DNA from: an uncultured virus (IMG/VR IMGVR_UViG_2061766007_001711)
Taxonomy: Duplodnaviria > Heunggongvirae > Uroviricota > Caudoviricetes
Virus record (IMG/VR): IMGVR_UViG_2061766007_001711
Strand: one strand, 5' to 3'
Length of the DNA: 21,905 nucleotides
The position numbers and the translations under genes were made by a program. The notes beneath the pieces are model-generated. The model saw only the letters and a program-made list of their open reading frames with translations. It did no database searches and was not told where the DNA came from. Below are positions 1,300-21,905 of the stretch, one piece after another; the first letter of the stretch is position 1; each line of letters begins with the position of its first letter.

Positions 1300-1827
1300 C
1301 TACTTGATGCTCAACGTGCGCTCCTTCGCCTTCGCGCAGATGTACGCGGGGTAAAGTTCCATGAGCTTCTCGCCCGTCATGCCTGCCGCCTTCGAGATGT
1401 TCGCCACCGTGAGGAGCTGGACGAGCTGTTCCACGGTCACGAGGTTCTTCGCGATGAGGTCCTGGACCACCTGGAACGGCCCCGCGTCGTCCTGCCACTC
1501 GTAGGTGTAGGATTGCTTGCTCCACGACACCTTGAGTTCCTTGGAATCAGGCAGGTCCTCCCATCCGCCCACGTTCCACGCGTGCTTCATGCACTCCTTG
1601 ATGGATTTCGCGGCGGCTTCGAAGAACCTGCGGAGCGCGTCGAGGTCGCGCCACCCCTCGCCCTTGGCGTTTCGGGCCGAAATGAAGTCGGCCTCTTCGC
1701 CGCTTCCGGGTTCCAGCTCCATGCCTGCGGTGCGGGACGCGAAATCGTACGCGGCGAGCGCGGCGGGTGTCGCGGGTATCGTCTTGAATTCGTCCGGGTG
1801 GATGATCGTCACTTCCTTCGTAGCCAT
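1300..1827 (-). CDS. Hypothetical phage protein, 175 aa
   Basis: AAGGAGG RBS; 3 nt from the upstream stop; codon usage matches the phage. Confidence 0.85.
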   Translation of the reverse strand: MATKEVTIIHPDEFKTIPATPAALAAYDFASRTAGMELEPGSGEEADFISARNAKGEGWRDLDALRRFFEAAAKSIKECMKHAWNVGGWEDLPDSKELKVSWSKQSYTYEWQDDAGPFQVVQDLIAKNLVTVEQLVQLLTVANISKAAGMTGEKLMELYPAYICAKAKERTLSIK

Positions 1828-1830
1828 TTT

Positions 1831-2658
1831 CTAGCCCTCCTTCGTTGCGCCGACGACGGCGTTGTTCACTGCGGTGTAGATTGCCTGCCTGCGTTCCGGC
1901 GGGACGTCGCCCGCGGATTCGAAGCCGAGCTTGCCCATGGCGTCCATGTAGGCTTGGCGGTTCTGCCGCGCGAGCTTCTTCATGGCGTTGAGGAAGTTCC
2001 GCGTATCGGAGTCCACCTCCTCGGCTTCCACGGCGTTCTGCGCCGTTTCCGTGCGCTGTGCGGACGTTTCTTCGGCCTGCGGTACTTCGGCATGGTTTTC
2101 GACTTGCGTGGCGTCAGTGGCCGTTTCCTGCGTTTCCGCGAACACCTCCTCGCTTTCCGCGAATTCAGGCACGGAGCCGCCCTTCGGCGTGAAGTCGGAC
2201 ACCTCCTCCGGCGTGTACATTCCGCAGAGGCAGGCCGGGTAGAGTGCGCGCACCCCCTCGGACACGCAACGCGCCGAGAGCATCTGCGTCGGGTACTGCT
2301 TCCACGTCTGCTTGCCGGTGAGCCCTGCGGCCTGCGCCCTCGCCATCGTCCACGTCACGTCGAGCTCCCCGCCCTGCGGGTGTTCGAGATGAAGGGTGCA
2401 TTCCTTGTCGGTACGCTTGACCCAGCGCACCTTTCCGCCTGATTCCTGGAAGGCGGCGAGCATGGCGTCGGCCTTCATCGCGGGGCGCCCCTGTATGATG
2501 TGGTAGCGCTCGGCGGCTTTCGCGGGGTGGAGACCGTTCGCCTGCGCGAGGCACATCAGGGTGAAGGCTTCGGAGCTGTTCTTGTAGCTGAAGAAGCCGG
2601 ATTTCGCAAAAGCCACGGACATGTTCGTCATGTCATGGATGGTGATTTCGTTAGCCAT
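1831..2658 (-). CDS. recT: RecT-like single-strand annealing protein
   Basis: GLHP..A..YHIIQGRPAMKADAM and TWTMARAQAAGL..K.TWKQYP.QML.AR.VS..R.LYP motifs, an acidic linker and a small helical C-terminal domain; AAGGAG RBS. Confidence 0.75.
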   Translation of the reverse strand: MANEITIHDMTNMSVAFAKSGFFSYKNSSEAFTLMCLAQANGLHPAKAAERYHIIQGRPAMKADAMLAAFQESGGKVRWVKRTDKECTLHLEHPQGGELDVTWTMARAQAAGLTGKQTWKQYPTQMLSARCVSEGVRALYPACLCGMYTPEEVSDFTPKGGSVPEFAESEEVFAETQETATDATQVENHAEVPQAEETSAQRTETAQNAVEAEEVDSDTRNFLNAMKKLARQNRQAYMDAMGKLGFESAGDVPPERRQAIYTAVNNAVVGATKEG

Positions 2659-2914
2659 GGTTTTCTCCTTGTTGTAGGTTGTTAAGTTCCGCGAGCTCCT
2701 TCTTGAGCTCCGCTTCGCGCTTCACGTTGTTGTCGTAGATACCCGTCCAGATTTCGAACTTGTCGAAGTGGCTCATGGACTCGTCGTCGAGCTTGCCTTC
2801 CCTGCCCTTGACAATTTTCGCGAGCCGTGTGGCGCGACGGATGGCAATCTTCGCCGCCGCCGCTGCGCCCTCGTGCGCGATCGTGATGTTGAATTCCAGT
2901 TCCTCCGCAGTCAT
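2651..2914 (-). CDS. Hypothetical protein, 87 aa
   Basis: AGGAGG RBS; overlaps the recT start. Confidence 0.8.
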   Translation of the reverse strand: MTAEELEFNITIAHEGAAAAAKIAIRRATRLAKIVKGREGKLDDESMSHFDKFEIWTGIYDNNVKREAELKKELAELNNLQQGENHG

Positions 2915-2925
2915 TTTTACGCCTC

Positions 2926-3147
2926 CTAGCCGTTGAGCACGTCCTCGAATTCCTCGTTCATGGCGCGCGCGAGGTCGGCCTTGATGGCCATCACCTTCTT
3001 CTTCTTCGATTCGTATGCGAGGATTTGCGCGTCGCTCGGGTTCTTGCCGAGGAGCACGCGTTCCACGATGTTCACAGCGAGGTTTTGCAGGTCGCGCACC
3101 GCGTTCTCGTGCGCCCGCTCCAGCATCCTCAAGTCGTCCATAGTCAT
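2926..3147 (-). CDS. Hypothetical helical protein, 73 aa (MTMDDLRM...)
   Basis: GGAG RBS upstream of the ATG at 3147, preferred over the track start at 3195. Confidence 0.75.
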   Translation of the reverse strand: MTMDDLRMLERAHENAVRDLQNLAVNIVERVLLGKNPSDAQILAYESKKKKVMAIKADLARAMNEEFEDVLNG

Positions 3148-3182
3148 GATGTTTTCTCCGTTGTTGTTAGTGTTAGGTTTTG

Positions 3183-3716
3183 TTAGAAGTTCCACTCGGA
3201 TTCCGGCACGTTCGCCTTTATTCCGAGCTTTTCCATATTAGCGTGGGTGTATTTGAGCGTGTCCATGAAATTTTTTATCCATCCTCGCTGGTAGTCCACC
3301 ATCTCGCGGTTCTTCGGGTCGGCCTCGAATTCCTTCGCGTAGGACTTCGCCTCTTCCAAGTCCATAAACGGGAATGTTCCCGCGATTCGTTGCGTCGCCA
3401 TCATGTACTTCGTCTCCGCTGCCGTGGCAATCTTGCTTCCGGGGTGAGAAATCCTAGGCGTATCGCTCGGTATCTGCATGTAGGCGCGGTGTTCGGCGCG
3501 GAAATTGTTCAAGGCTTCGTTCAGGACGCGCTGCGTCGGTACGTCGGCCATCATGCGCGCCTTCTTGAAGCTCTCGTGGACTTCCTCCACGTCCGAGAAC
3601 TTGAGCGCGTCCATCAATGCGGCGGCGACGATTGCCACCGTGGTCGGGACTACGCGCCCCGCCTGGGTGTACGAGAGCACCAGCTCGTCGTGGATGGCCT
3701 GGAGAATCTTATCCAT
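3183..3716 (-). CDS. Possible helicase loader/inhibitor-like protein, 177 aa
   Basis: Coupled directly downstream of the initiator-like gene. The N-terminal helical pattern (AALMDALKFSDVEEVHESFKKA...VPT) resembles phage loader domains; the function is inferred. Confidence 0.45.
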   Translation of the reverse strand: MDKILQAIHDELVLSYTQAGRVVPTTVAIVAAALMDALKFSDVEEVHESFKKARMMADVPTQRVLNEALNNFRAEHRAYMQIPSDTPRISHPGSKIATAAETKYMMATQRIAGTFPFMDLEEAKSYAKEFEADPKNREMVDYQRGWIKNFMDTLKYTHANMEKLGIKANVPESEWNF

Positions 3717-4416
3717 GGCGGCGTTCCTCCATTATGCGGTTGAGGACTTGCTGGGATTGTTCGTAGTTCCGGCGCGAGATTTCATCGGTGGTTAGGAACT
3801 TCTGCTTCGGCGCGGCTTCCTCGGAATGGCGGCGCGACCAGTTGAGGAGCGTGGCGTAGTGGCTCTTGTAGCGCCTGCCGCTCGAGGCGAGGTACTGCGA
3901 GAGCTCCTCGATCAATTCCGCGGCGTTGTCCACCTTCTCGTATAGCCGGAGCTGTTCTTCCTCGGTCAGCATGACGTTGTGGAATTCGCCGTACGGCAGC
4001 TTCCTCGGGGCCTTCGTTGCGACAATAGCTGTCGATGGTTCTTCCTCGGGGCCTTCGTCCGCCACTGGTTCCGGTTCCTGGAACGCCACGCGCTGTTCCT
4101 TCATGGCGAGCGTGTACTTCACGGAGTCGTACTTCATTCCGTACTTCTTCTGCATCCACCCGTCGAGAGCATCCTCGTCCGCGCCTTCCCCGACGGCCTT
4201 CACGGCGGCGGCTCGCATCTTGATTAGCGACTGTTGCGCCTTGAATTCCCCGGCCTCGTTGACGAGCGAAGCGGCGAGCGGTTCGGCGTCCGGGTTGGCG
4301 CCCTCGAAAAGGAGGGTGTCTGCGAACGAGCGGAGCCACGCTGCGGCCTTCTTGTCGTCGTTTCCGAACGTGCGGACGTGTAGAGCGAACTGCACGGTGT
4401 CGAGCTGGACCTTCAT
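3709..4416 (-). CDS. Phage replication initiator / replisome-organizer-like protein, 235 aa
   Basis: C-terminal YGEFHNVMLTEEE...IEELSQYLASSGRRYKSHYATLLNW motif typical of phage replication proteins; AGGAGG RBS. Confidence 0.7.
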   Translation of the reverse strand: MKVQLDTVQFALHVRTFGNDDKKAAAWLRSFADTLLFEGANPDAEPLAASLVNEAGEFKAQQSLIKMRAAAVKAVGEGADEDALDGWMQKKYGMKYDSVKYTLAMKEQRVAFQEPEPVADEGPEEEPSTAIVATKAPRKLPYGEFHNVMLTEEEQLRLYEKVDNAAELIEELSQYLASSGRRYKSHYATLLNWSRRHSEEAAPKQKFLTTDEISRRNYEQSQQVLNRIMEERRHG

Positions 4417-4620
4417 CTACGCCTCCTGGGCGTTGAAGTTCCCTTCCAGCTTCGCGAGGATGTCACCCGCGATCTGGTGCTGGCGCATCGATGCGTACAT
4501 CTGCATCTCGTCGCCCTTTCGTGCGTTTTCCTTGGCTTTGGCCTCGTAACCGTCGCGCGCCATTTTTACGGCGTTGACGAGTAGTGCCTTTTCTTCTATC
4601 TTGAATCTGTAACCAGCCAT
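4417..4620 (-). CDS. Hypothetical protein, 67 aa, first gene of the leftward operon
   Basis: AAAGGA RBS; the stop abuts the next ATG. Confidence 0.8.
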   Translation of the reverse strand: MAGYRFKIEEKALLVNAVKMARDGYEAKAKENARKGDEMQMYASMRQHQIAGDILAKLEGNFNAQEA

Positions 4621-4669
4621 TTTTTCATCCTTTGGCTGGTCGATAGAGTGCAGACTTTTTGGTTTAAAT

Positions 4670-4699
4670 ATTCTACATTATTGGCAATCAGCCTGACAA
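4670..4699 (-). promoter_or_regulatory. Putative leftward sigma70-type promoter
   Basis: TTGTCA-N18-TAGAAT on the minus strand in AT-rich DNA, about 50 nt upstream of the 4620 start. Confidence 0.45.
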
Positions 4700-4817
4700 T
4701 AATATAACATCTTTTTGTCAATAATGCGAGATTTTTTTGTAAAATATTTGTTTACGTTTGAAAGATAGTTTACGATAATCGGCAGAAAAGGGCATTTTTT
4801 CACAAATGTGGCACAAT

Positions 4818-4848
4818 AGTGACACAAAAGTAAAAGAATAGTGTCACT
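4818..4848. promoter_or_regulatory. Inverted repeat AGTGACAC-N15-GTGTCACT (putative protein-binding site)
   Basis: Perfect 8-bp arms; related motifs at 4694-4720, 5316-5334 and 13405-13442. Confidence 0.5.
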
Positions 4849-4853
4849 TCGCC

Positions 4854-4895
4854 TGTAATGTAATGTAGTGTTTATAAACATTACATTACATTACA
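4854..4895. repeat. 42-bp palindrome (one mismatch) built of TGTAA/TTACA pentamers
   Basis: TGTAATGTAATGTAGTGTTTA|TAAACATTACATTACATTACA. Confidence 0.9.
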
Positions 4896-4978
4896 CTNNN
4901 NNNNNNNNNNNNNNNNNNNNNNNNNTTGAGGAAGAACGCGCGCGCGATGGATGCTTACGCATTTTTTAGGAGGCCTGC

Positions 4979-5317
4979 ATGAAACGAAAGCAAAAATTCA
5001 CCGACAAGTACGGATGGCTCGTGCGCCGCGCTGCCGCCGTCCTGACATTCTCCGTCGTAGCACCGTCCGTCGTGCTCGCCTCCGTCTGGTGGATGCTCCC
5101 CAGGTTCGGTTCACTCTCCACCTGGCTCGCCGACCTCGCACTCATGGAAGCCTGCATCATCCTCGAGATCAAGGCGGACAAGACCGACAACGCGGAGCCG
5201 GTACGCATTTGGCCCGTAATCCTGGACACGTCCATACTCTCCGCTTCCGTCGCCTCGATGGGCCTCGTCATGGTGTTCGGGGCTTTAGGCCTCTTGTCAA
5301 TCATTTACGGAAATTAG
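4979..5317 (+). CDS. Membrane protein, 112 aa, 2-3 TM segments (holin- or exclusion-like, unproven)
   Basis: AGGAGG RBS, a basic N-terminus and long hydrophobic stretches. Confidence 0.75.
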   Translation: MKRKQKFTDKYGWLVRRAAAVLTFSVVAPSVVLASVWWMLPRFGSLSTWLADLALMEACIILEIKADKTDNAEPVRIWPVILDTSILSASVASMGLVMVFGALGLLSIIYGN

Positions 5318-5438
5318 TGACATTTTCCGTCACTGCCTGTTGCGCGTCCGCTAAAAAAATTGTATATTCCGTGTAATCGCTAACTAGGACTACGTCTCCC
5401 TGCCGCTCTGTCGGCGGGGATTCGTCNNNNNNNNNNCA

Positions 5439-5501
5439 TTCGCCGCCGTGTTCGCATTCGTCGGCCTGATGGTGTTCCTCAAGCAGACATTCCTCGATTA
5501 G
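5439..5501 (+). CDS. 3' end of an alternative membrane-protein gene (FAAVFAFVGLMVFLKQTFLD*)
   Basis: Hydrophobic open frame ending at the TAG equivalent to 5315-5317. Confidence 0.55.
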   Translation, partial: FAAVFAFVGLMVFLKQTFLD

Positions 5502-5523
5502 TGACATTTTCCGTCACTGCCTG

Positions 5524-5552
5524 TTGCGCGTCCGCCAAAAAAATTGTATATT
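5524..5552 (+). promoter_or_regulatory. Putative rightward promoter TTGCGC-N17-TATATT (allelic copy 5340-5368)
   Basis: 17-nt spacing; AGTGAC-N7-GTCACT inverted repeat just upstream. Confidence 0.55.
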
Positions 5553-5580
5553 CCGAGTAGTCGCTAACTAGGACTACGTC

Positions 5581-5615
5581 TCCCTGCCGCTCTGTCGGCG
5601 GGGATTCGTCGTTTT
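5581..5615 (+). terminator. Terminator-like GC hairpin
   Basis: TCCCTGCCG-CTCTGT-CGGCGGGGA followed by TTCGTCGTTTT (imperfect U-tract). Confidence 0.45.
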
Positions 5616-5734
5616 AGGGCGTTTAATATTACATATACCGAACACGCGCGCTTCCAGTCACTGCACTTTTATGTCATTTTCTGTCACTTTTTCTTAAAAA
5701 TCCGTAAGTTACTACAACTTTCAAGAGGTGGACC

Positions 5735-5890
5735 ATGCCATTGACCCTTAAAGACCACGAGAAACGCATCCAGGAGCTCGAAAAGACCATCGCCCTACTC
5801 CAAGTACGGCTGGACGAAATCGGGCCGCAGAACGCACGCAACGCGAAAACGGAAACGCCGCCCCCTAAAGACCGCATCGTGTTCCGTTGA
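5735..5890 (+). CDS. 51-aa coiled-coil protein (MPLTLKDHEKRIQELEKTIALLQVRLDEIG...)
   Basis: AAGAGGTG RBS, heptad pattern, and a stop overlapping the next RBS. Below the track length cutoff. Confidence 0.75.
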   Translation: MPLTLKDHEKRIQELEKTIALLQVRLDEIGPQNARNAKTETPPPKDRIVFR

Positions 5891-5900
5891 GGAGGTGAAC

Positions 5901-7142
5901 ATGGCTAAATCACACGAAATCACACGGACCGACAATTCGCATAAATTGAGCGCAGACAAGATCGTCATGCTCCCGGTTTCCGAGGTCCGACCATACGAGA
6001 AAAACCCGCGAAAGAACGCCGACGCAGTTAAGTTCGTCAAGGCATCCATCGAGCAGTTCGGATTCAAGGTTCCAATCATCGTCGATTCTAACCGCGTCAT
6101 CGTCTGCGGCCACACGCGACTGATGGCGGCGAAGTCGCTCGGCATGATCGAAGTCCCCTGCATCTTTGCCGACGACCTGACCGACGACCAGATAAAGGCA
6201 TTTCGTCTCGCCGACAACAAGGTGGGCGAATTCGCGGAGTGGGACATGGACATGCTGGGAGACGAGCTTGACGCCATCGCGGACGCGTGCGACATCGACA
6301 TGGGTGAGTTCGGTTTCGACTTGTCCGACGAAGAAGAAACGGAAGTCGTGGAAGATGAAGTCCCGGAGGAAGTCGAGCCTATCTGCAAGAAGGGCGAGAT
6401 TTGGCAGCTGTGCGAACATAGGCTCATGTGCGGCGATTCAACAAGTTCTGATGATGTATCAAAGTTAATGAATGGCGAAATTGCAGATATTGCTTTTACA
6501 TCGCCACCATATAACGCTGGACAAACGCCGACAGAAGTAAAGATGGGCAAAAGGACAAAGTATAATGGCAACGAAGATGATAAAGACGAAGATAATTATA
6601 CAGAATTTCTTTGCAAATATCTTGAAAATACATTAAATAATAGTAAATATTCATTTATGAATATTCAATCATTAAGCAATAATAAAAAAAGTATTATTGA
6701 TTTAATGTATAAATTTAGAAATCAATTTTGCGATACTATTATTTGGGATAAAACAGGTTCACAGCCAGCAATGGCAAATAATGTACTTAATAGTGAATTT
6801 GAATATATACATATATTTGGTGGTAATGCTTCAAGAGCTATAGGAACAATTCCTTTTCGCGGAACTATATCAAATATATTGCATTTAGCGGCACAAAGAA
6901 AAAACGAATTTTCAAAAATTCATAACGCCACATTTAGTGTTGATTTTGCGGCATACTTTGTGAAAAATTTTGCTAAAGAATCCGTATTGGATTTGTTTGG
7001 CGGAACAGGAACAACGCTTATAGCTTGCGAACAATTAGGCCGCAAGTGCCGCATGATGGAACTCGAACCGCACTATTGCGACGTGATTATTGCGCGATGG
7101 GAAAATTTCACCGGGCAGAAGGCCGTGAAGCTGGAGGGTTAG
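5901..7142 (+). CDS. ParB/Srx-like N-terminal domain fused to a beta-class amino (N4C/N6A) DNA methyltransferase
   Basis: PYEKNPR...SIEQFGFKVPIIVD...GHTRL..A (ParB-like); HRLMCGDS; TSPPY (motif IV) before VLDLFGGTGTT (motif I); GAGGAGG RBS. Confidence 0.92.
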   Translation: MAKSHEITRTDNSHKLSADKIVMLPVSEVRPYEKNPRKNADAVKFVKASIEQFGFKVPIIVDSNRVIVCGHTRLMAAKSLGMIEVPCIFADDLTDDQIKAFRLADNKVGEFAEWDMDMLGDELDAIADACDIDMGEFGFDLSDEEETEVVEDEVPEEVEPICKKGEIWQLCEHRLMCGDSTSSDDVSKLMNGEIADIAFTSPPYNAGQTPTEVKMGKRTKYNGNEDDKDEDNYTEFLCKYLENTLNNSKYSFMNIQSLSNNKKSIIDLMYKFRNQFCDTIIWDKTGSQPAMANNVLNSEFEYIHIFGGNASRAIGTIPFRGTISNILHLAAQRKNEFSKIHNATFSVDFAAYFVKNFAKESVLDLFGGTGTTLIACEQLGRKCRMMELEPHYCDVIIARWENFTGQKAVKLEG

Positions 7143-7145
7143 CCA

Positions 7146-7592
7146 GTGAAGACATATCGCAAGCCGACAGAAAAATCCTTGAAGAACCTCCGGCGCATCA
7201 CGTCGGAGCAGGCTCGCGAAATGCAAAAAATATCTACCGCAAAACGAAGGCAGAACCGCGAAGAAGCGCTCACCCGCGACACGTTCAAGCAGGAAATTAC
7301 ACGCGCGCTCGGCATGAAGCTACTCGTCACGCCGTCGATGCGAGAATCGTTCCGAAAGTTGGGCGTGGAACTTGACGATTCGGAATCAGCCACCCGTCTT
7401 TCTTTCCGGCGGGCAGTCACGAAGGCTGTAAAGGACGGAGACATAAAGCAGATTTTGATGCTGGCCGAGTTCGCAGGCTTCCGTAACGACCAGGAAGAGT
7501 CAGAACCGCCCAACGGCGGCAAGATTGTCTTCGAGGTGCAAGTACCGACTCCTATTCCGAAGGAGGTGCAGGATGCCTTCCGAACAAAGTAG
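7146..7592 (+). CDS. terS: Putative terminase small subunit, type A (148 aa)
   Basis: Overlaps the terL start; N-terminal KNLRRITSEQAREMQKIS..KRR motif; GGAGG RBS before GTG. Confidence 0.7.
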   Translation: MKTYRKPTEKSLKNLRRITSEQAREMQKISTAKRRQNREEALTRDTFKQEITRALGMKLLVTPSMRESFRKLGVELDDSESATRLSFRRAVTKAVKDGDIKQILMLAEFAGFRNDQEESEPPNGGKIVFEVQVPTPIPKEVQDAFRTK

Positions 7593-8207
7593 CATCAAGA
7601 TTTCGCCGTTCCAGCAGAAGCTCATCTTTTCTGAAAACGAGTTTGTCCTGGCCTGCTGCGGTCGAGCCGCCGGAAAGACCGAAGGAGTATGCGGTCGCCT
7701 CGCCTACCGCAACGTCAATTTTGGCCGTTCTGCGATGCTCATCGCGCCTACATTCGGAGTGATACGTGAGACGATCATGCCCGCCACAATCGAGTGGTTT
7801 AAAAAATTTGGAGTCAAGACAAAGCCGAACTTTTCGGAGCATACGATAACGACACGCTACGGGAAAATCGTGTTCCTCTCCGGTACGCGCCCGGACAGTC
7901 CGCGCGGCTACACCAACCTCGAGGACTTCTACTGCGACGAGGCCGCCTACGTCCCGAAGAAGGCCATCAAGAACGGCCTACTCGCCTGCCGNNNNNNNNN
8001 NCCGAAGAAGGCCATCAAGAACGGCCTCCTCGCCTGCCGTTCCAACAAGGGCCTATCAACGACACAGTGCTACACATCCACGGGCCTCGCCGGTTCCTAC
8101 TTCAACAAGATGGCGAAACAGCCCCCGGTCGCCGACAACCTGGTCCTCACCGCTTCCACGTTCGACAACCCGTTCACCACGGCGCAGTACAAGCGCACCG
8201 TCTACGA
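7573..8207 (+). CDS. terL: Terminase large subunit, ATPase domain, allele A (partial, internal gap)
   Basis: Walker A GRAAGKT, Walker B DFYCDEAAY, motif III YTSTG and STFDNPF; AGGAGG RBS. Confidence 0.9.
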
Positions 8208-8217
8208 NNNNNNNNNN

Positions 8218-8266
8218 TCCCGACCCCATCCCGCAAGAGGTGAAGGATGCAATGGGGCAAGGCTAA
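8218..8266 (+). CDS. terS: C-terminal end of type B small terminase (PDPIPQEVKDAMGQG*)
   Basis: Aligns with the type A tail PTPIPKEVQDAFRTK* and continues in frame from ...VFEVQVP at 11183. Confidence 0.7.
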
Positions 8267-8587
8267 AGACGAGAACCTCCGCATCTCGCCGTTCCAGCAG
8301 AAGCTCATCTTCGCCGAGAACGAGTTCGTGCTCGCCTGCTGCGGGCGCGCGTCCGGCAAGACTTCCGGCGTCACCGGGCGCATGGCCTATCGCAACGTGA
8401 ACTACGGACGCTCCGCGATGCTCATCGCCCCGACATTCGGGCTCATACGCGAGACCATCATGCCCGCGACCCTCGAATGGTTCGACAAGTTTCACGTGAA
8501 AACGAAGGCGAACCTCACCGAGCACACGATCGAGACGCGCTACGGGAAAATCGTGTTCCTCTCCGGTACGCGCCCGGACAGTCCGCG
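8247..8587 (+). CDS. terL: Terminase large subunit N-terminus, allele B (partial)
   Basis: GRASGKT; close paralog of 7573-7904, identical over the last 50 nt. Confidence 0.9.
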
Positions 8588-9396
8588 NNNNNNNNNNNNN
8601 NNNNNNNNNNNNNNNNNNNNNNNNNNNNNNNNNNNNNNNNNNNNNNNNNNNNNNNNNNNNNNNNNNNNNNNNNNNNNNNNNNNNNNNNNNNNNNNNNNNN
8701 NNNNNNNNNNNNNNNNNNNNNNNNNNNNNNNNNNNNNNNNNNNNNNNNNNNNNNNNNNNNNNNNNNNNNNNNNNNNNNNNNNNNNNNNNNNNNNNNNNNN
8801 NNNNNNNNNNNNNNNNNNNNNNNNNNNNNNNNNNNNNNNNNNNNNNNNNNNNNNNNNNNNNNNNNNNNNNNNNNNNNNNNNNNNNNNNNNNNNNNNNNNN
8901 NNNNNNNNNNNNNNNNNNNNNNNNNNNNNNNNNNNNNNNNNNNNNNNNNNNNNNNNNNNNNNNNNNNNNNNNNNNNNNNNNNNNNNNNNNNNNNNNNNNN
9001 NNNNNNNNNNNNNNNNNNNNNNNNNNNNNNNNNNNNNNNNNNNNNNNNNNNNNNNNNNNNNNNNNNNNNNNNNNNNNNNNNNNNNNNNNNNNNNNNNNNN
9101 NNNNNNNNNNNNNNNNNNNNNNNNNNNNNNNNNNNNNNNNNNNNNNNNNNNNNNNNNNNNNNNNNNNNNNNNNNNNNNNNNNNNNNNNNNNNNNNNNNNN
9201 NNNNNNNNNNNNNNNNNNNNNNNNNNNNNNNNNNNNNNNNNNNNNNNNNNNNNNNNNNNNNNNNNNNNNNNNNNNNNNNNNNNNNNNNNNNNNNNNNNNN
9301 NNNNNNNNNNNNNNNNNNNNNNNNNNNNNNNNNNNNNNNNNNNNNNNNNNNNNNNNNNNNNNNNNNNNNNNNNNNNNNNNNNNNNNNNNNNNNNNN

Positions 9397-9593
9397 GTGA
9401 TGGACGAGGGCTTCTACATCGGCGACACGGACGTGGAGGACGAACTCGTCCCGCAGACATACTTCATGAACCCGCGCGGGCAAATCCAGCTCGTGCCGAA
9501 GAAGTACATCAAGACCGTAATCGGGAAATCCCCCGACCAGGCGGACGCCATGTGCCTCGCCTGCTATCGCGGCGACCCGCAACCTTTACAAAC
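9397..9593 (+). CDS. terL: Terminase large subunit, C-terminal nuclease fragment (misordered)
   Basis: KKYIKTVIGKSPDQADAMCL carries the SPD-x-ADA catalytic motif. Confidence 0.8.
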
Positions 9594-9604
9594 NNNNNNN
9601 NNNC

Positions 9605-10276
9605 ACCCGCCCGGACTCTCCGCGCGGTTACACGAATCTTGAGGACTTTTATTGCGACGAAGCCGCCTACGTCCCGAAGAAGGCCATCAAGAACGGCCTA
9701 CTCGCCTGCCGTTCGAACAAGGGGCTATCCACGACCCAGTGCTACACCTCCACGGGACTCGCCGGTTCATACTTCAACAAGATGGCGAAGGCGCCGCCCG
9801 TCGCCGACCATCTCGTCCTCTCCGCGTCCACATTCGACAACCCGTTCACGACCGCGCAGTACAAGCGCACCGTCTACGAGTCACTCCTCGACACTCCCGC
9901 CTTCCTGAAGCAGGAGCTTTTCGGCGATTTGGACGCCGAGGAACTCAACCTCGTATTCCCGCCCTCGTCATTCGCCACGGTGCGGCGCGTTTCCGGGGGC
10001 CGCAAGCGTTGCGGCATCGACTTCGCATACGAGGGAAACGACACCACCTGCATATTCGTCGTGGACGACTGCGGCATCGTCGAGAAGAAGGTCATAGGCA
10101 AGGATAACGGGCGCCTCGCCTTCGACGCGTTCAAGCGCCTGCACCAGAAGTGGAACTTCGAGTCCCTCTCGCTCGACCATACCGGCGGCTTCGACGCGGG
10201 CTTCGTCGTTCTCATGGAGCAGGAAAAAATCAAGGTCCCCGTCAACCTCGTAAACTTCGGCGCGGCATCGCCCGAC
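9605..10276 (+). CDS. terL: Terminase large subunit, central part (third allele)
   Basis: DEAAY, STG and DNPF, then the RNase H-like CGIDFAYEGNDTT and LSLDHTGG. Confidence 0.9.
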
Positions 10277-10290
10277 NNNNNNNNNNTTTC

Positions 10291-11183
10291 ATGGTAGCGA
10301 GAAACCCGAACAAGACCGAAGCGAGAATCCCCACCAACTCGAGGCACTACAAGCGCAAGACCGACTGCGCCCAGGCGCCCGTCCGGGGAACTTCACGCCT
10401 CGCGCAAAAGTTCATTCCCGAAACCAAGACCTTCAAGGAAAAGCAGGGCTTCCTCGGTCTCAAGGACCGCGACGACAAGCGCCCACTCTGGCAGAAGCTC
10501 ACCGACGTGTACGACTGGCTGTGCGAGAAGTACACCATCGTGTTCAAGCACCGCTCCGAGTGCGTCGACCAGCACGAATACGAGTGTCTCCTCATCACCC
10601 ACTCCGCCATTTCCGACTTCACGGTGGCCGCGTTCATCTACTCGTGCTGCTCCGAGGTCGAGGAGCTTCCCTACGTCCACCACTGCTTCAATCCCATGCG
10701 TTACGCCGAGGACCTCTCCGAAGGACCCGACAAGGAAGCGTTCAAGGACATCGTCGAGAAGATCGAGAAAAAGTTCATTTCCATCAAGANNNNNNNNNNA
10801 CGTTACGCCGAGGACCTCGCCGAAGGCCCCGACAAGGAAAAGTTCAAGGACATCGTCGAGAAGATCGAGAAAAAGTTCATTTCCATCAAGANNNNNNNNN
10901 NGCCGACGGACCCGACAAGGAAGCGTTCAAGGACATCGTCGAGAAGATCGAGAAAAAATTCATTTCCATCAAGAAGGACCTCCGCAAGTACATCGAGAAC
11001 GACGCCTACTTCCTGAACGCGCAGACGCGCTCCCACACAATATGGTTCCTCGAGCACTTCTTCAAGAACGACATCGAGGAGCCCGACGCGCCNNNNNNNN
11101 NNTGAGCACTTCTTCAAGAACGACATCGAGGAACCCGACGCGCCGACATCCGGCAAGGTCGTGTTCGAGGTCCAGGTCCCCGA
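10291..11183 (+). CDS. terS: Putative terminase small subunit, type B (about 232 aa when reconstructed from overlapping allelic pieces plus 8218-8266)
   Basis: Ends NDIEEPDAPTSGKVVFEVQVP, matching type A NDQEESEPPNGGKIVFEVQVP; the rest is dissimilar. The start is uncertain because it lies next to a gap. Confidence 0.65.
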
Positions 11184-11193
11184 NNNNNNNNNN

Positions 11194-11239
11194 CGAATCC
11201 GAGGACGTGACCGTCCCGGCATCCACAAGGAGCTACTAG
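11194..11239 (+). CDS. terL: Probable last codons of terL (ESEDVTVPASTRSY*)
   Basis: Stops 1 nt before the portal ATG and contains the portal RBS; assigned by synteny. Confidence 0.5.
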
Positions 11240-11240
11240 A

Positions 11241-13372
11241 ATGGCAACAGAAGAAATCATCGAAGAAACGGCGGCGGCGTTCCAGCCGCAGGAAGTGAAC
11301 CCGGACGCGCAGCTCCCGGACGCCGAGGAGGAGAAGCGCATCATCGACGAGATGGTCGAACTCGCGGAGAAGTCCTCCGACTTCTTCGGCGTTGAGAACG
11401 AGCGCAAGCGCGACGACGCGCGCGTCTATGCCGACGTGGTCGTGTTCAACGATACCGACACGAAGGCCATGACGAAGAACCGCGCCCTCGCGAGCGTGAA
11501 CCCCCTACCCCTCTACGTCAACGCCGCGAAGAACCTTTTCCTCACGAATCCCTTCGTCTCCCAGGTCGAAGGCAAGAACGGCGACACGTTCCGCGACTTC
11601 CTCGACCAGCAGCTCGTGGAAATCTTCGCGAACTCCGACGCTAACGTGTCCGTTTTCTCCGAGGGCTTGCAGGACATTTTAGAGGAGGGCGGCGGCTTCA
11701 TGTACTTGACGACCGAAGAAGGCCGCATCGAGATTAACCTTGCCTACGAGCCGAGCTCGTGCATCTACGACCCGAACTCCCGCAAGCTGGACGGAAGCGA
11801 CGCGGAATTCTTCGGCATCGTCGAGCAGCTCCCGTACGAACGAGTCAAGGAGATGGCCGAGGCCAACGGCGTCACCATCCCGAGCAAGGACAGAATACAG
11901 CAGACTAAAACGTGGAGCTTCGCGAACTACAACGGGAGCCTCGGCGGCATCAACCTCGTCCACTTCTACAAGCGCGACTCCGAGGGCGTGTGGTTCATCC
12001 AGGTGGTCGGCGACAAGGTAATAAAGCGCGTACTTTTCCGCGGGCTCTCGTGCCTGCCGGTGGTCCCGATTTACGGCCAGCGCTTCAAGGACGACCGCAA
12101 GAAGTTCTACAAGGGCGTGGTGCGCGATACCAAGCACCTCTGCAAGATCGTGAACGGCTGCTACGTTTCGCTGTGGGAACGCGTGAGCGTGCCGAGCGTG
12201 CCTTACACCTCCGTGTCGATGGACTCCATCGAGAACGTGGATGCCGACTACAACAACGACCTCGCACGGTACAAGCGGTACAAGGAATACGTCAAGAAGG
12301 GCGAACAATGGGTGCACCTCGCGGAGCCGAAGCGCGTGGACCCGGTCGTGATGACCGCCGACCTTATCCCCGTCATCAACGACTCCCTCCGTAAGATTTC
12401 GCTCATGATTGGAATCCCGGAAGAAGGGCTAGGATTCAGCGCAGCCTCCGACGCGGTGCAGAAAACCGCCGCCGAGATTCTCACGCGTTCCTCCGCGCTC
12501 GTCACCAACGTGTCGCACTACTACCGCCACTTGCAGCGCTCCATCCAGCACGTCGCCGAGGTCATCGTCGAGATGCTCTGCATCTACAACGGCAGGCCGA
12601 ACGAATACCACGTAAAGCTGCTCAAGGGCCCGGAGGACGCCATCAAGCGCGAACAGCGCCGCCAGCAGATTCTCGCCTTCCAGACGCTCGCCCCGGAAGC
12701 GGTGAAGCCGTTGCTCCTTGCCGAGGCCATCCGCACGGGAGACTTCGAGAACGCCGATGCCATCGCGAACGCGGTGCTCCTCACGCTCCCGCTGGAATTG
12801 AAGCAGGCACTCGACGTGGGCGGCGGCGTGGACGTCGCGGCGCTCTCGGCCCAGGTCGGCGCGCTCACGCAGCAGGCGCAGCANNNNNNNNNNCGGAACT
12901 GAAGCAGGCCCTCGACGTGGGCGGCGGCGTGGATGTCGCGGCGCTCTCGGCCCAGGTCGGCGCGCTCACGCAGCAGGCGCAGCAGCAGGCGCAGCAAATA
13001 GAGGAGTACCGCCGGACCATCGACGCGGACATCATCGCGGGACAGAACCAGCTCGTGATGGCGCGCATGAACAACGAGGCGGCTCTGCGTTCGAAGCTCG
13101 TGGAGCTGGAAGCGAAGGCGGCGGAGAACGAGAAGGACCGCCAGCTCGAACTCCTCAAGATGGAGGGCGACGCTCGCGCGAAGGCCGAGGAGCTGTTCAT
13201 CAAGAGCCGCGAGGCGGAGCAGAAGTTCATCGATAGCACGCGGAAATCCGTCCAGGATGCCGAGCGCCTCCGCATCGAAGCCGAGAAGGCACGGGCGGAA
13301 ATCGTCGGCAAGCTCGGTGCGGTGATTAAAAATACATATACCGACAACCTAACACCGCAGACGGAACTATAA
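11241..13372 (+). CDS. Portal protein, P22-like with C-terminal coiled-coil barrel (about 676 aa after removing the 12793-12883/12894-12984 overlap)
   Basis: Follows terL; IYDPNSRKLDGSDA and LPVVPIYG...GVVRDTK motifs; long Q/E/A-rich helical tail. Confidence 0.85.
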
Positions 13373-13472: not shown

Positions 13473-14420
13473 ATGGCATTACCAAGCCAGGAACTATTGG
13501 AAAAGTACCGCGCCGAGGAAAAGGCGGACAAGGGAACACCCGCGAATCCCGAACAAACTAACGCGGAGACGACCGAAACCCAGACGACCGAAACGCCGAC
13601 GGGCGCGCAGGGCGGCGAAGGTGACGGAGCAGCCACTACACCCACGGAAACGACACCCTCCGCCAGCGCAGGCGAGGACGCGGACAAATCCGCGAAGGGC
13701 GACGACAGATGGGAACACGCTCAATCGCAGTGGAAGAAAAGGCTCGACAGACAAGAGCGGGCCCACCGGAAACAAATCGCAGGACTCGAGGCCACGATCG
13801 CGGAACTGAAGAAGCAGGTCGAAGGCAACAAGCCGAAGCTCCAGCGCGAGGACTTTCCGACGGTTGAAGCGTTCGAGAGTTACAAGAACGAGGAACAGAA
13901 GAAGCAGCTCCTCGACGAACTTGAAAAGAGCAACGCCGCCAAGGAAGCCGCCGCAAGGCAGCAGGCCGAAGCGAAGAAGAAGATGGAGGCTACCTTCAAG
14001 ACGCCCGAGGCGCAGAGGGATTTCCAGGACACGATGTCCGACTTCATCGACGACAACAGCGAATGGCTCGAAACCGAGGAAGGCCAGCTCTATCAGGAAA
14101 TCATCGACCAGTCCCCCGTCGGGCTCGTCATGGCGATGGCCATCGCGAAGAACGAAGTGGTGCAGGAACAGATGAAGAAGTGGTCGAAGGACTTGCTTTA
14201 CCAGAAGCTCATGTCGTTCGAAGTAACCCTCATGAACAAGGCCAAGGAGGCTAAAGCAGCCGCCGCGGCCAAGCAGACAACGCCCGCGCAACCCGCCGAG
14301 AAGCAGCCCTCCACGAGCGGCATCCCCTCGACAGGGAGCGTGGGAAAGACACAGGCGCCGCAGACGTTCTCCGCGAAGGATTGGCTCCGCAAGAATCGCC
14401 CCGAGCGCTATCCACGCTAA
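13473..14420 (+). CDS. Capsid scaffolding protein, 315 aa
   Basis: Between portal and coat; disordered acidic N-terminus, coiled coils, KLQREDFPTVEAF motif and basic C-terminal helix. Confidence 0.8.
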   Translation: MALPSQELLEKYRAEEKADKGTPANPEQTNAETTETQTTETPTGAQGGEGDGAATTPTETTPSASAGEDADKSAKGDDRWEHAQSQWKKRLDRQERAHRKQIAGLEATIAELKKQVEGNKPKLQREDFPTVEAFESYKNEEQKKQLLDELEKSNAAKEAAARQQAEAKKKMEATFKTPEAQRDFQDTMSDFIDDNSEWLETEEGQLYQEIIDQSPVGLVMAMAIAKNEVVQEQMKKWSKDLLYQKLMSFEVTLMNKAKEAKAAAAAKQTTPAQPAEKQPSTSGIPSTGSVGKTQAPQTFSAKDWLRKNRPERYPR

Positions 14421-15103: not shown

Positions 15104-15166
15104 CGCGGTGCAGGAACAGATGAAGAAATGGTCGAAGGACCTGCTTTACCAGAAGCTCATGTCGTT
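15104..15166 (+). repeat. Allelic fragment of the scaffold gene (matches about 14157-14219)
   Basis: VQEQMKKWSKDLLYQKLMS with a few SNPs; flanked by 10-N joins. Confidence 0.85.
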
Positions 15167-15176
15167 NNNNNNNNNN

Positions 15177-15516
15177 CGCGACGACCTTGTCCTCGTCCAT
15201 TTCGGATAGGGAGTTCGCCTTGATTTGGTCGCGGCGGGCGCGGAGCTCGTCGTTCTGCGCCTGAAGGTTCGCGATTTTCTTCTTCAGTTCCTCGGCGCNN
15301 NNNNNNNNNNNNNNNNNNNNNNNNNNNNNNNNNNNNNNNNNNNNNNNNNNNNNNNNNNNNNNNNNNNNNNNNNNNNNNNNNNNNNNNNNNNNNNNNNNNN
15401 NNNNNNNNNNNNGTCGGAAAGTGCCATTATTTCGCCCCCATTTCGTCGAGTTCCTTCTGCAAGGCCGCAATCTGCGCCTCGTTTTCCTTTATCTGGTCGT
15501 CAATTTCCGCGATTTC
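15177..15516 (-). CDS. Inverted, misplaced pieces of the ejection-protein cluster (end of the 89-aa gene and start of the following MALSD... gene)
   Basis: 15413-15516 duplicates about 20249-20352; AEELKKKIANLQ... continues ...MAQNR from 20116. Confidence 0.7.
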
Positions 15517-17301: not shown

Positions 17302-19272
17302 TGGCCGCGCGCACGATCCAAATAAACAGTTTTTGCGGCGGCTCGTCGAAATTGGCGGACTCGGAATTCCTCGGCATGGAGGAATCCCTCAACATGTACC
17401 CGGAGACAGTCACCGCGACGGACTCCTACACGACAAAAGTCCTGAAATCGGTGGAAGGCTTCAACAAGGGGCCGACATTCGAGAGCAACGAGAAGTACCT
17501 CGGTATGGGCGTAGTCAATTCTAACCCGTGGAGCTCCCCTGCCATCAAGGAATCCTTCCTAGTCGTTACCCGCACGGGCGCCTCGAACGATTGCAAGGTG
17601 TGGAACATCTACGGCGGGACGAAGGCCCAGGTGGGCTCGCTCTCGTCCGGCTCTGGAGAACGCGCCATCGTCGAGGAACTCTCGAACGGCGTGGTGGTTT
17701 TCACGCTCGGNNNNNNNNNNCATGGGCGTAGTCAATTCTAACCCGTGGAGCTCCCCGGCCATCAAGGAATCTTTTCTAGTTGTTACCCGCACGGGCGCCT
17801 CGAACGATTGCAAGGTGTGGAACATCTACGGCGGTACGAAGGCCCAGGTGGGCTCGCTCTCGTCCGGCTCGGGCGAGCGCGCCATCGTCGAGGAACTCTC
17901 GAACGGCGTGGTGGTTTTCACGCTCGGCGGGTCCATGTACTCCGCCGACCCGACAAGCACCACCTCACCCGCCCCGGTATGCGTTCCTATTGTCTTGCCG
18001 GACGCTTTCGACCATGCGGGCAAGGTCAAGCCGACCCAGCTCGCGCAGCTAAATTTCCGCCTAATCGTCAACGACGAGGACAGCGACTACATCTATTGGA
18101 GCGAAATCAACCGCCCGCGCAGCACTGCGGACATGCACCCCTTCGAGCAGAGCCTCACGCAGTACGCGTACACCAAGACGGACGGGACGGTCGTCACCTT
18201 CTCGGACAACGTGTTCTACGCACCGAGCGCCGGCACGTACGACCCGAACACGCTCACCACGCAGACGGTCTACACGTCCGCACTCAACTCGATGAAGATG
18301 GACCTGAAGGCGGACAAGGTGGTCGCATTGAGGGCGACGGACACTTCGCTTTTCGTATTCGGGAACAACTCGCTCCAGGTGCTCCGCTGGCAGAATTCCA
18401 CGAGCGCGCCGTTCGCCATCGTGGCGAAGTCCTCCCTCGCGGGTGTCGCGTTTGCCGACGCCGTGGCGGTGGTTGGAAACGAGTGTTTCTTTGTCGGAAA
18501 GGGGCCGCAGGGTATGCTCGGCGTGTTCGCTGTGGACGAGAACTGCAACATCCGCAAGGTGAGCACGAACGCCGTGGACCAGAGGCTCGCGAAATATGCC
18601 GCAATCACGCACGGCTTCAAGGACATCCGCTCCTTCACGTACACCTACAAGGGCCACCAGTTCTTCATCTTCACCGCCGTGGAATACTACGATGAATTCG
18701 AGGAGACGATGGCCTACGACGTGGGCGAGGACGTATGGACTGACCGCGCCTCGTTCGACGAGAACGGCGACAAGTTCGCATGGTGCGCGGTGGACGCACA
18801 CCACATAGAAGGGCGCCCGACTTTCGTCACGAAAACACGCGGCGGCAAGTACCGCCTCGCGGAATTTGTTCCGAACAGCTCCACCGACCACTGGCTCGAG
18901 GAGACATCGGACGACCTGAACTACTACATCGTGAAGGAACGCACCACGGGCATCAAGTACGACGGCGTGAACGACATCGTCGTGACGTCCTTGGAGCTCG
19001 TGATGAACGCAGGGGCGACCATGCAGACGGACCCGTCGAAGCAGGGCTACAACCCGCGAGTCATGCTCCAGGTAAGCAACGATGGCGGGAGGACATGGAG
19101 CAACGAATTGTGGGCTTACGCCGGGAAGGTGGGGCAGTATTCGTGGCGTGTCCGCTGGAACGGCCTCGGAAGGGGCGCGCGTTTCGCCTTCCGAGTTCGC
19201 ATGACGGACCCGGTGACATTTGAAATTGCAACGGCATATTTGAGCTATCTACCTTGCGGGAATAGGGTGTAA
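17301..19272 (+). CDS. Packaged-DNA stabilization / tail hub protein, P22 gp10-like (about 584 aa after removing the 17504-17710/17721-17927 duplication)
   Basis: Beta-rich; LNMYPE, YKGHQFF, MAYDV...W and C-terminal VMLQVSNDGGRTWS...GKVGQY..RVRW..LG....FRVRMTDPV. Confidence 0.85.
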
Positions 19273-21810: not shown

Positions 21811-21905
21811 TGACAACGTGTTCTACGCCCCGAGCGCAGGCACGTATAACCCGTCCACGCTCACCACGCAGACGGTCTACACGTCCGCACTCAACTCGAT
21901 GAAGA
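21811..21905 (+). repeat. Allelic fragment of the tail hub gene (matches about 18204-18298)
   Basis: DNVFYAPSAGTYNPSTLTT versus DNVFYAPSAGTYDPNTLTT. Confidence 0.9.

Follow-up and report, generated by a model that had tools for sequence, protein, structure and literature searches.

The window analysed here, a stretch of 21,905 nucleotides (nt) from an uncultured virus of the Caudoviricetes (IMG/VR record IMGVR_UViG_2061766007_001711), contains two different genes at the position of the small terminase gene (terS), directly upstream of the gene for the large terminase (terL). The proteins that they encode, called A and B below, end in the same tail of 37 amino acids (aa). These genes belong to two alleles of one packaging-initiation cassette, which coexist in a single uncultured podovirus lineage with a P22-like portal and are placed consecutively in the window. 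We consider it probable that both proteins are modular small terminases (TerS) whose tail is matched to the large terminase (TerL). An earlier interpretation of this DNA made from its letters (hereafter the sequence-only reading) had proposed swappable packaging-specificity modules on a conserved TerL-docking peptide.

The window is a fragmented metagenome scaffold in which the alternative paths of a strain mixture are set in series and partly out of order. This is apparent from the 29 runs of N that interrupt it, most of them exactly 10 long, and from comparison of the window with itself, in which many short pieces proved to be variant copies of one another (Table 1). The gene for the B protein is broken up in this way, and the sequence-only reading had joined its piece ending at 11183 to the piece beginning at 8218. 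This join is real. We mapped onto the window the Logan contigs of four sequencing runs, of which X4 and X3 are possibly from the source sample and X5 and X6 are from independent samples. The joint from 11177 to 8218 was found in all four (from 11178 to 8219 in X6), as were those from 5896 to 10287, from 10716 to 10902 or from 10773 to 10959, from 11081 to 11134, and from 9593 to 11194. The joint from 10276 to 9397, with 51 nt in between, was present in X4, X3 and X5 only, and that from 8581 to 9619 in X5 only; in this last run the entire B path lies on a single contig of 8637 nt. The IMG/VR contig L001, which contains no N, is collinear with the entire B path, and the pieces of the window tile it in the order 5500-5905, 10290-10789, 10902-11092, 11134-11183, 8218-8587, 9604-10276, the 51 nt, 9397-9593, and 11194 onward.

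The ORF (open reading frame) of L001 ends in exactly the predicted tail, ...GKVVFEVQVPDPIPQEVKDAMGQG followed by the stop codon. When the B pieces of the window were joined along the contig path, they gave an open frame of 232 aa, identical at 229 of 232 positions to the stored proteins P0011 and P0012, and uninterrupted B-type ORFs of 229-242 aa are carried by 13 IMG/VR contigs, all 13 with the tail at their end. The pieces themselves had been read correctly at 10291-10789, 10902-11092, 11103-11183 and 8218-8266. Since 9593 joins 11194, ESEDVTVPASTRSY and its stop codon form the C-terminus of TerL and not the end of the ORF beginning at 10291; an arrangement in which that ORF lies between terL and the portal gene and truly ends in ESEDVTVPASTRSY is contradicted by the same joint, seen in 4/4 runs. 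There is almost no probability left that the A/B arrangement or the join arose through misassembly. The scaffold order is indeed wrong, with overlapping, variant and out-of-order pieces between its N-runs; however, each allele is present as uninterrupted contigs in independent assemblies and runs. We thus rejected the artefact reading of the join, and only the order of the pieces within the scaffold is artefactual. Inside the B gene, between 10699 and 10974, three micro-variants of a stretch of about 90 nt follow one another (…SEGPDKEAF…, …AEGPDKEKF… and …ADGPDKEAF…), which implies at least three B sub-haplotypes in the sample.

Allele A consists of a gene for a ParB-N6 DNA methyltransferase and the gene for a 148-aa protein, and allele B of a single gene for a 232-aa protein. 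Translation of 7146-7592 gave the 148 aa expected for type A, ending in FRNDQEESEPPNGGKIVFEVQVPTPIPKEVQDAFRTK and a stop codon. The A and B genes both lie directly upstream of terL and overlap it by 20 nt, the terL ATGs at 7573 and 8247 being located inside GAT-GC as had been noticed beforehand. The tail-bearing IMG/VR loci have the gene order upstream gene, terL, P22-like portal gene, and in 16/16 of them the first 20 nt of terL lie within the upstream gene. The identity of TerL was established with PHROG 2 (8.8e-33 for L001, 1.4e-28 for L017 and 1.2e-31 for L062).

We then compared the limits of the two alleles. On the left, the A path of the window is the same as L001 through the ribosome-binding site (RBS) and ATGGC (...GAGGAGGTGAACATGGC) and diverges after it. 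On the right, the boundary lies inside terL. L001, a B contig that is 99.5% identical to window 8218-8587, stands for B in this comparison; its nucleotide identity with the A path is 69-87% over codons 10-96 and 96-97% from about codon 100. The terL 5' ends, previously described as divergent and converging at 7855 and 8538, do differ up to about codon 96. The terL alleles as such had been described as near-identical, which is true at the protein level but not at the DNA level, where the A-side and B-side pieces of the window are about 90% identical in the middle of terL. Comparison of 17 distinct TerL sequences (3 A-linked, 14 B-linked) revealed 17 alignment columns with disjoint residues in the two groups, all 17 within columns 1-96 of 430. 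A tree of TerL residues 1-96 separates A-linked from B-linked sequences (support 93/89), and a tree of residues 97 to the end has no A/B split, with L015 (A) grouping with L002 and L005 (B). Given the left divergence at the start codon and the right convergence inside terL, the unit exchanged between A and B extends from the first cassette start codon to about terL codon 96, and thus includes (the methyltransferase,) the body, the tail and terL codons 1-96. The sequence-only reading had supposed that only an N-terminal domain was swapped between A and B, and this part of it must be abandoned, because the unit also holds the tail (59% identical), the terL 5' end and, in allele A, the methyltransferase. 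What stands is that two bodies without detectable homology share one homologous tail at the TerS position, and that this tail follows TerL.

Both alleles are present in one population, as had been assumed. In X4 and X3 the contig depth was about 17-28 for the A cassette and about 60-85 for the B pieces, meaning that the alleles coexist in one sample. X5 and X6 are essentially B only: X5 had no cover of the A cassette and X6 a depth below 1 in two bins (contigs cannot prove absence). A search of sequencing runs found the B piece in 20 runs from 10 studies, 14/20 labelled bovine gut metagenome, bovine metagenome or metagenome and 6/20 with a coded organism name or none.

A gapless alignment of the A and B tails has 22/37 identical aa, with both tails ending at the same position, exactly as first read; at the nucleotide level, 72/114 positions are identical. 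In each tail, a linker that is acidic and probably disordered leads to the short strand-like K(I/V)VFEVQVP, which is followed by PIPxEVxDA. Profile-profile comparison with hhalign aligned these 37 columns and nothing upstream, with a probability of 97.2% (E 4e-11) for small alignments and of 97.7% (E 2.4e-12) for deeper alignments of 26 and 24 sequences, so the absence of similarity between the bodies noted earlier is upheld. These alignments are shallow (effective number of sequences, Neff, 1.3-2.3), and a very remote homology of the bodies could escape them.

The distribution of the tail was followed in both families. The A family has 71 relatives (cluster representatives), none with a Pfam domain; 48 of them carry this tail family and 23 another end, namely ...ELSGKVDSKLEIEVTGVEVG-like (7), ...VVINFRRATPEDAK (10), ...V(E/D)(V/I)xVTGL(D/N) (5) or a short end (1). 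In L017 and L018 the A bodies are identical to that of the window at 103/112 and 99/112 positions, the tails are of other classes and TerL is 23-27% identical to that of the main lineage; in L062 a distant A body occurs with a tail of a third class and with a 482-aa TerL that represents a third lineage. One body, A, is thus combined with four tail classes, which go with three TerL lineages wherever the context of the locus is available. The window A body is nearer to that of L017 (103/112), with its other tail and other TerL, than to that of L014 (95/112), which has the window's tail. Between window A and L017, nucleotide identity is about 0.9 before nt ~336 of the gene and only about 0.3 after it; this position corresponds to the invariant AEFAGF motif. 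This drop indicates that the body/tail junction is a real recombination point and that the tail travels with terL. The true junction between body and tail is the one seen between A bodies with different tails, not a junction between A and B. In the B family, a tail of this family is present in 34/34 proteins, among them four full-length ones at 42-44% identity (P0033, P0034, P0106 and P0107) and the fragment P0108.

A catalogue search for N-termini other than these two, an idea of the sequence-only reading, turned up A and B bodies only. A degenerate DNA motif of the tail matched 16 stretches in viral contigs (13 B and 3 A) and 22 in metagenome contigs (16 B and 6 A), two collections that share many contigs so that the counts overlap; a tail profile run against 1.84 billion protein representatives gave 3 matches (2 A and 1 B). 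No third body with this tail was found in viral contigs, metagenome contigs or the 1.84 billion representatives, by a 37-position profile and an exact-pattern scan that may miss diverged tails (P0033 and P0034 are below threshold).

Two A-family members deviate in this region. In L045 (224-1477, minus strand of the locus), a divergent A-type, terL (MTISPFQQ...) begins one base past the stop codon of terS and the tail is kept; the overlap of 20 nt and the ~8 initial TerL residues can thus be dispensed with. In P0071 the tail has an internal deletion of the strand-like core (…GGKIQDALRTK), which is either a natural variant or an assembly error.

Since the tail follows the TerL lineage and the ~96 N-terminal residues of TerL follow the TerS type, the tail can be read as a TerL-matched connector, as the P22 and lambda mechanism predicts. 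The published description of TerS, in the sections of PMC9611059 concerned with its layout, gives a helix-turn-helix, a helical core, a beta-barrel stalk and a flexible C-terminal moiety; it also indicates that P22 TerL residues 1-58 suffice for binding TerS residues 140-162 and that the C-terminal region of lambda TerS binds TerL (PMC9611059). The most likely role of the tail is that of a C-terminal segment by which a modular small terminase is matched to its TerL. A and B would both be such terminases, the body (A residues 1-112, B residues 1-196) recognising the phage's own DNA and oligomerising, and the 37-aa tail linking it to TerL, probably through TerL residues 1 to ~96, and possibly supplying a stalk strand as well. 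The bodies would then be interchangeable modules for DNA recognition and oligomerisation. The last ~8 tail codons double as RBS and start codon of terL. A and B agree with the general layout of TerS in their position and size, in their basic N-terminus and helical middle, and in having a strand-like segment and a flexible end; the net charge of the 45 N-terminal residues is +8 and +6, and both tails are acidic (net charge -2 and -5).

Several results weigh against this proposal. The A and B bodies match no Pfam, PHROG or NCBIfam family at E <= 0.01, and sequence profiles of PDB entries gave nothing below E 0.38, with rows at chance level. A Foldseek search of the B model against PDB and BFVD returned nothing at E <= 0.001, and the best VIA-align Z scores, 5.0 for B and 3.8 for A, are generic helical matches. 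The AlphaFold model of B is mostly helical, with a predicted local distance difference test (pLDDT) of 67.2 overall (75-94 in the core), and that of A is helical with a pLDDT of 57.5; no helix-turn-helix or oligomer core was demonstrated in either. The linker and the strand-like part of the tail have a pLDDT <50 in both models, whose last residues are predicted to form a short helix. The end of the tail is partly constrained at the DNA level by the terL start signals, the context of non-standard tails comes from 3 loci only (L017, L018 and L062), and full-length A-linked TerL is represented by only 3 distinct sequences. TerS type and TerL N-terminus could also go together through simple linkage to a fixed breakpoint and not through co-adaptation; linkage alone explains less well that two bodies without detectable homology keep the same peptide under purifying selection.

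Of the fold and profile searches called for at the outset, the profile comparison supported homology restricted to the tail, and none provided a TerS family or fold for either body. Distant A and B relatives had no TerS family match in Pfam, PHROGs or NCBIfam even at relaxed thresholds, and ESM Atlas gave no usable match for B and only unnamed viral clusters for A. No match to A or B was found in 50,697 records of cultured phages, and no relative of either in two scans of genome contigs for prophages. Neither family is named in the libraries searched, and neither has a cultured phage among its relatives; the literature searches were not aimed at these families. Missing fold or family matches prove neither that the bodies are new folds nor that they are not TerS; we infer the TerS identity of A and B solely from their position.

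Other explanations of the tail have to be weighed against its role as a connector to TerL. It is unlikely that the shared segment is mainly a strand of the TerS beta-barrel stalk with a flexible end, kept for ring assembly and associated with TerL by physical linkage. An alternating hydrophobic stretch is indeed present in all tail classes (VFEVQV, LEIEVTGV, VVINF and VEVHVTGL), and in the TerS of Sf6, P22, SF6 and PaP3, as the relevant passages of PMC9611059 describe them, a beta-barrel stalk follows the helical core and precedes a flexible C-terminal moiety. In PaP3 TerS such a strand is followed by an acidic tail that is dispensable for TerL association in vitro (PMC7672466). However, a self-assembly strand should move with the body; the A body instead recombines exactly at the body/tail junction with the tail following TerL, and two bodies without detectable homology retain the same tail. 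Stalk and docking roles are, moreover, compatible. Conservation of the tail for nucleic-acid reasons, as RBS or start of terL, for translational coupling or as a packaging site, is very unlikely. The codons of E-V-x-D-A are identical in A and B (GAG GTG ... GAT GC), as is the DNA of the last ~8 tail codons as a whole, which holds the Shine-Dalgarno-like GAGGTG and the terL ATG, and the 20-nt overlap is kept in 16/16 loci. Yet upstream of these last ~8 codons, 10 of the 22 identical residues are coded by different, synonymous codons in A and B, meaning that the constraint on the tail acts at the peptide level; the overall nucleotide identity is only 72/114, and L045 retains the tail though its terL overlaps nothing.

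One of the two proteins, most likely B, might be another TerL-associated factor with a borrowed docking tail, DNA recognition being located elsewhere. B is larger (232 aa), predicted mostly helical, has no recognisable helix-turn-helix and matched no TerS-like family or fold. We hold this to be quite unlikely, because B replaces the A cassette precisely, from the same RBS and start codon through to terL, and because the B family is always found at this position with this tail. In the lineage of the window and L001, the sole ORFs upstream of B (4951-5376 and 5735-5890) have no PHROG match, and the PHROG scan named no TerS among the window's other ORFs (it did not cover ORFs upstream of B at other B loci). 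The methyltransferase raises another issue. The ParB_N/N6-N4 fusion matches PF01555 (1.2e-21, 78.1 bits for a cut-off of 26.7) and PF02195 (4.7e-06, 27.0 bits for a cut-off of 26.3), and its methyltransferase matches PHROG 498, DNA methyltransferase (5.7e-97). All close A-body loci have the fusion, or part of it, immediately upstream of the A body (the window, L014, L015/L035, L016/L042 with the ParB part only, L017, L018, L043, L046 and, as a fragment, L041); the fusion is absent upstream of the divergent A bodies L045 and L062 and of every B locus. Full-length copies are 52-59% identical in aa sequence to that of the window, beside A bodies that are 85-92% identical. In phage P1, pac cleavage is controlled by methylation. 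It is conceivable, if rather improbable, that the A body works with the ParB-methyltransferase, through a methylation mark or as a ParB-like partner, and that A and B are undescribed TerS folds or families with two mechanisms on one motor. If true, the two alleles would choose DNA by distinct mechanisms and use the same peptide to connect to one motor. Altogether, we retain two modular small terminases with a TerL-matched tail as the probable reading.

Table 1. Features of the packaging locus and variant pieces of the window (positions are those of the window).
Feature	Coordinates	Strand	Basis or remark
Upstream region common to both alleles; left boundary of the exchanged cassette	5437..5900	+	94% identical to L001 503-907; ends in shared RBS GAGGAGG, start ATG at 5901
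ParB_N + N6/N4 DNA methyltransferase fusion, first gene of allele A	5895..7142, likely start ATG 5901	+	Pfam, PHROG
Type A TerS-position protein, 148 aa (body 1-112, tail 112-148)	7146..7592	+	translation
Shared 37-aa tail, A version	7479..7589	+	sole hhalign-aligned stretch
terL 5' part, allele A, codons 1-139; overlaps terS-A by 20 nt; allele-specific to codon ~96 (about 7860)	7573..7991	+	
Continuation of a terL variant	8002..8207	+	overlaps 7951-7991; about 90% identical to 9674-9879
End of type B tail and stop codon	8218..8266	+	contig joints, L001
terL 5' part, allele B, codons 1-113	8247..8587	+	protein 100% identical to L001 TerL; DNA 99.5% to L001 1556-1925
terL C-terminal part (after 10276 and 51 missing nt)	9397..9593	+	joint 10276 to 9397
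terL middle part (after 8587 in true order)	9604..10276	+	joint 8581 to 9619 in X5
Type B TerS-position protein, codons 1-166	10291..10789	+	83% nt identity to L001 902-1404; joint 5896 to 10287
Assembly bubble: micro-variant of the central part of the B gene, bypassed by the contig path	10800..10891	+	
Type B protein, middle-to-late part	10902..11092	+	L001, contig joints
Type B protein, tail start (frame 2 of piece)	11103..11183	+	joints 11081 to 11134 and 11177 to 8218
Last 14 codons of terL (ESEDVTVPASTRSY) and stop	11194..11239	+	joint 9593 to 11194 in 4/4 runs; L001 2825/2826 adjacent
P22-like portal gene	11241..12883	+	Pfam PF16510 1.2e-28
Variant pair	7600-7904 and 8283-8587		79% identical, self-comparison
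Variant pair	7885-7991 and 9605-9711		91% identical, self-comparison
Variant pair	8002-8207 and 9674-9879		90% identical, self-comparison
Variant pair	10718-10789 and 10903-10974		97% identical, self-comparison

Upstream of the cassette, a stretch of ~400-500 nt (window 5377-5900, L001 507-903) contains no convincing gene, and its conservation between the alleles is 94%. Nothing was found when the window, or 4800-6000 within it, was scanned for Rfam families, tRNAs, promoters and terminators, and this stretch itself had no Rfam match and no promoter-like or terminator-like site. Farther upstream, 1300-4881 on the minus strand is a divergently oriented early region with a RecT-like annealing protein (1831-2658) and a replisome-organiser-like protein (3709-4416). 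On the other side of the portal gene, a homologue of 'head closure Hc3' is encoded at 17722-19272 on the plus strand (PHROG match). Displaced or duplicated variant pieces occur across the entire scaffold (14159-14218 and 15107-15166, 15414-15516 and 20250-20352, 18205-18298 and 21812-21905), some of them inverted (19875-19924 and 21147-21098, 20396-20445 and 21739-21690). The gene order downstream of the portal gene is therefore unreliable without other contigs.

The C-terminal moiety of TerS is described as flexible and usually invisible in structures, at least in the passages of PMC9611059 devoted to it. The contacts between TerS and TerL are structurally ill-defined, and the present population amounts to a natural domain-swap experiment. 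It delimits a candidate interface of 37 residues of TerS and about 96 of TerL, with breakpoints at AEFAGF and at about terL codon 96. The coexistence in one sample of what would be packaging-specificity alleles fits the idea, put forward for PhiGT1-like podoviruses in the passages of PMC10386132 on this subject, that diversifying selection is focused on TerS. These data also provide a functional lead for two protein families that are orphans in cattle-gut phages.

Chimeras of lambda and phage 21 are reported to have revealed that the TerS C-terminus and the TerL N-terminus have matched specificity. Leavitt et al. (2013, Virology 440:117) are reported to have described the horizontal exchange of terS among P22-like phages. 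In the exchange of P22-like terS genes such as that of Sf6 gp1, a self-contained DNA-recognition part is exchanged and the motor-contacting part stays matched, which would also be the case here. Unlike in that exchange, the bodies described here have no detectable homology and their junctions were mapped in a wild population. A modular TerS with a C-terminal TerL-binding part is already textbook knowledge for lambda and P22, and the present case is not a new kind of system. What appears to be new, from the sequences compared, is that the A body occurs on at least three other tail classes, that the B body always has this tail and that no third body has it in any of the collections searched, together with an exchange unit that reaches terL codon ~96.

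Sf6 and P22 TerS are only 12% identical according to the part of PMC9611059 that compares them. As in lambda gpNu1-gpA, where the C-terminal region of TerS binds TerL (PMC9611059), the tail would be the part that meets the motor; unlike here, lambda is a cos phage with different families, and the evidence in the present case is comparative only. In PhiGT1-like podoviruses the recombination points that replace terS would often be inside or beyond terL, as proposed in the relevant passages of PMC10386132. Those passages contain no analysis of a shared tail or of tail-TerL covariation, and the breakpoint at terL codon ~96 found here fits their hypothesis (PMC10386132). TerL of the present lineage is at most ~24% identical to any TerL in the phage collection of cultured phages, and none of the searches revealed a resemblance of A or B to P22 gp3, either in sequence or in fold. 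Nevertheless, the P22 gp3/gp2 system is like this one in its terS-terL-portal order, here with a P22-like portal, and in a short C-terminal TerS segment matched to the N-terminus of TerL, namely residues 1-58 in P22, as given in the section of PMC9611059 on this contact, and the allele-linked residues 1-96 here.

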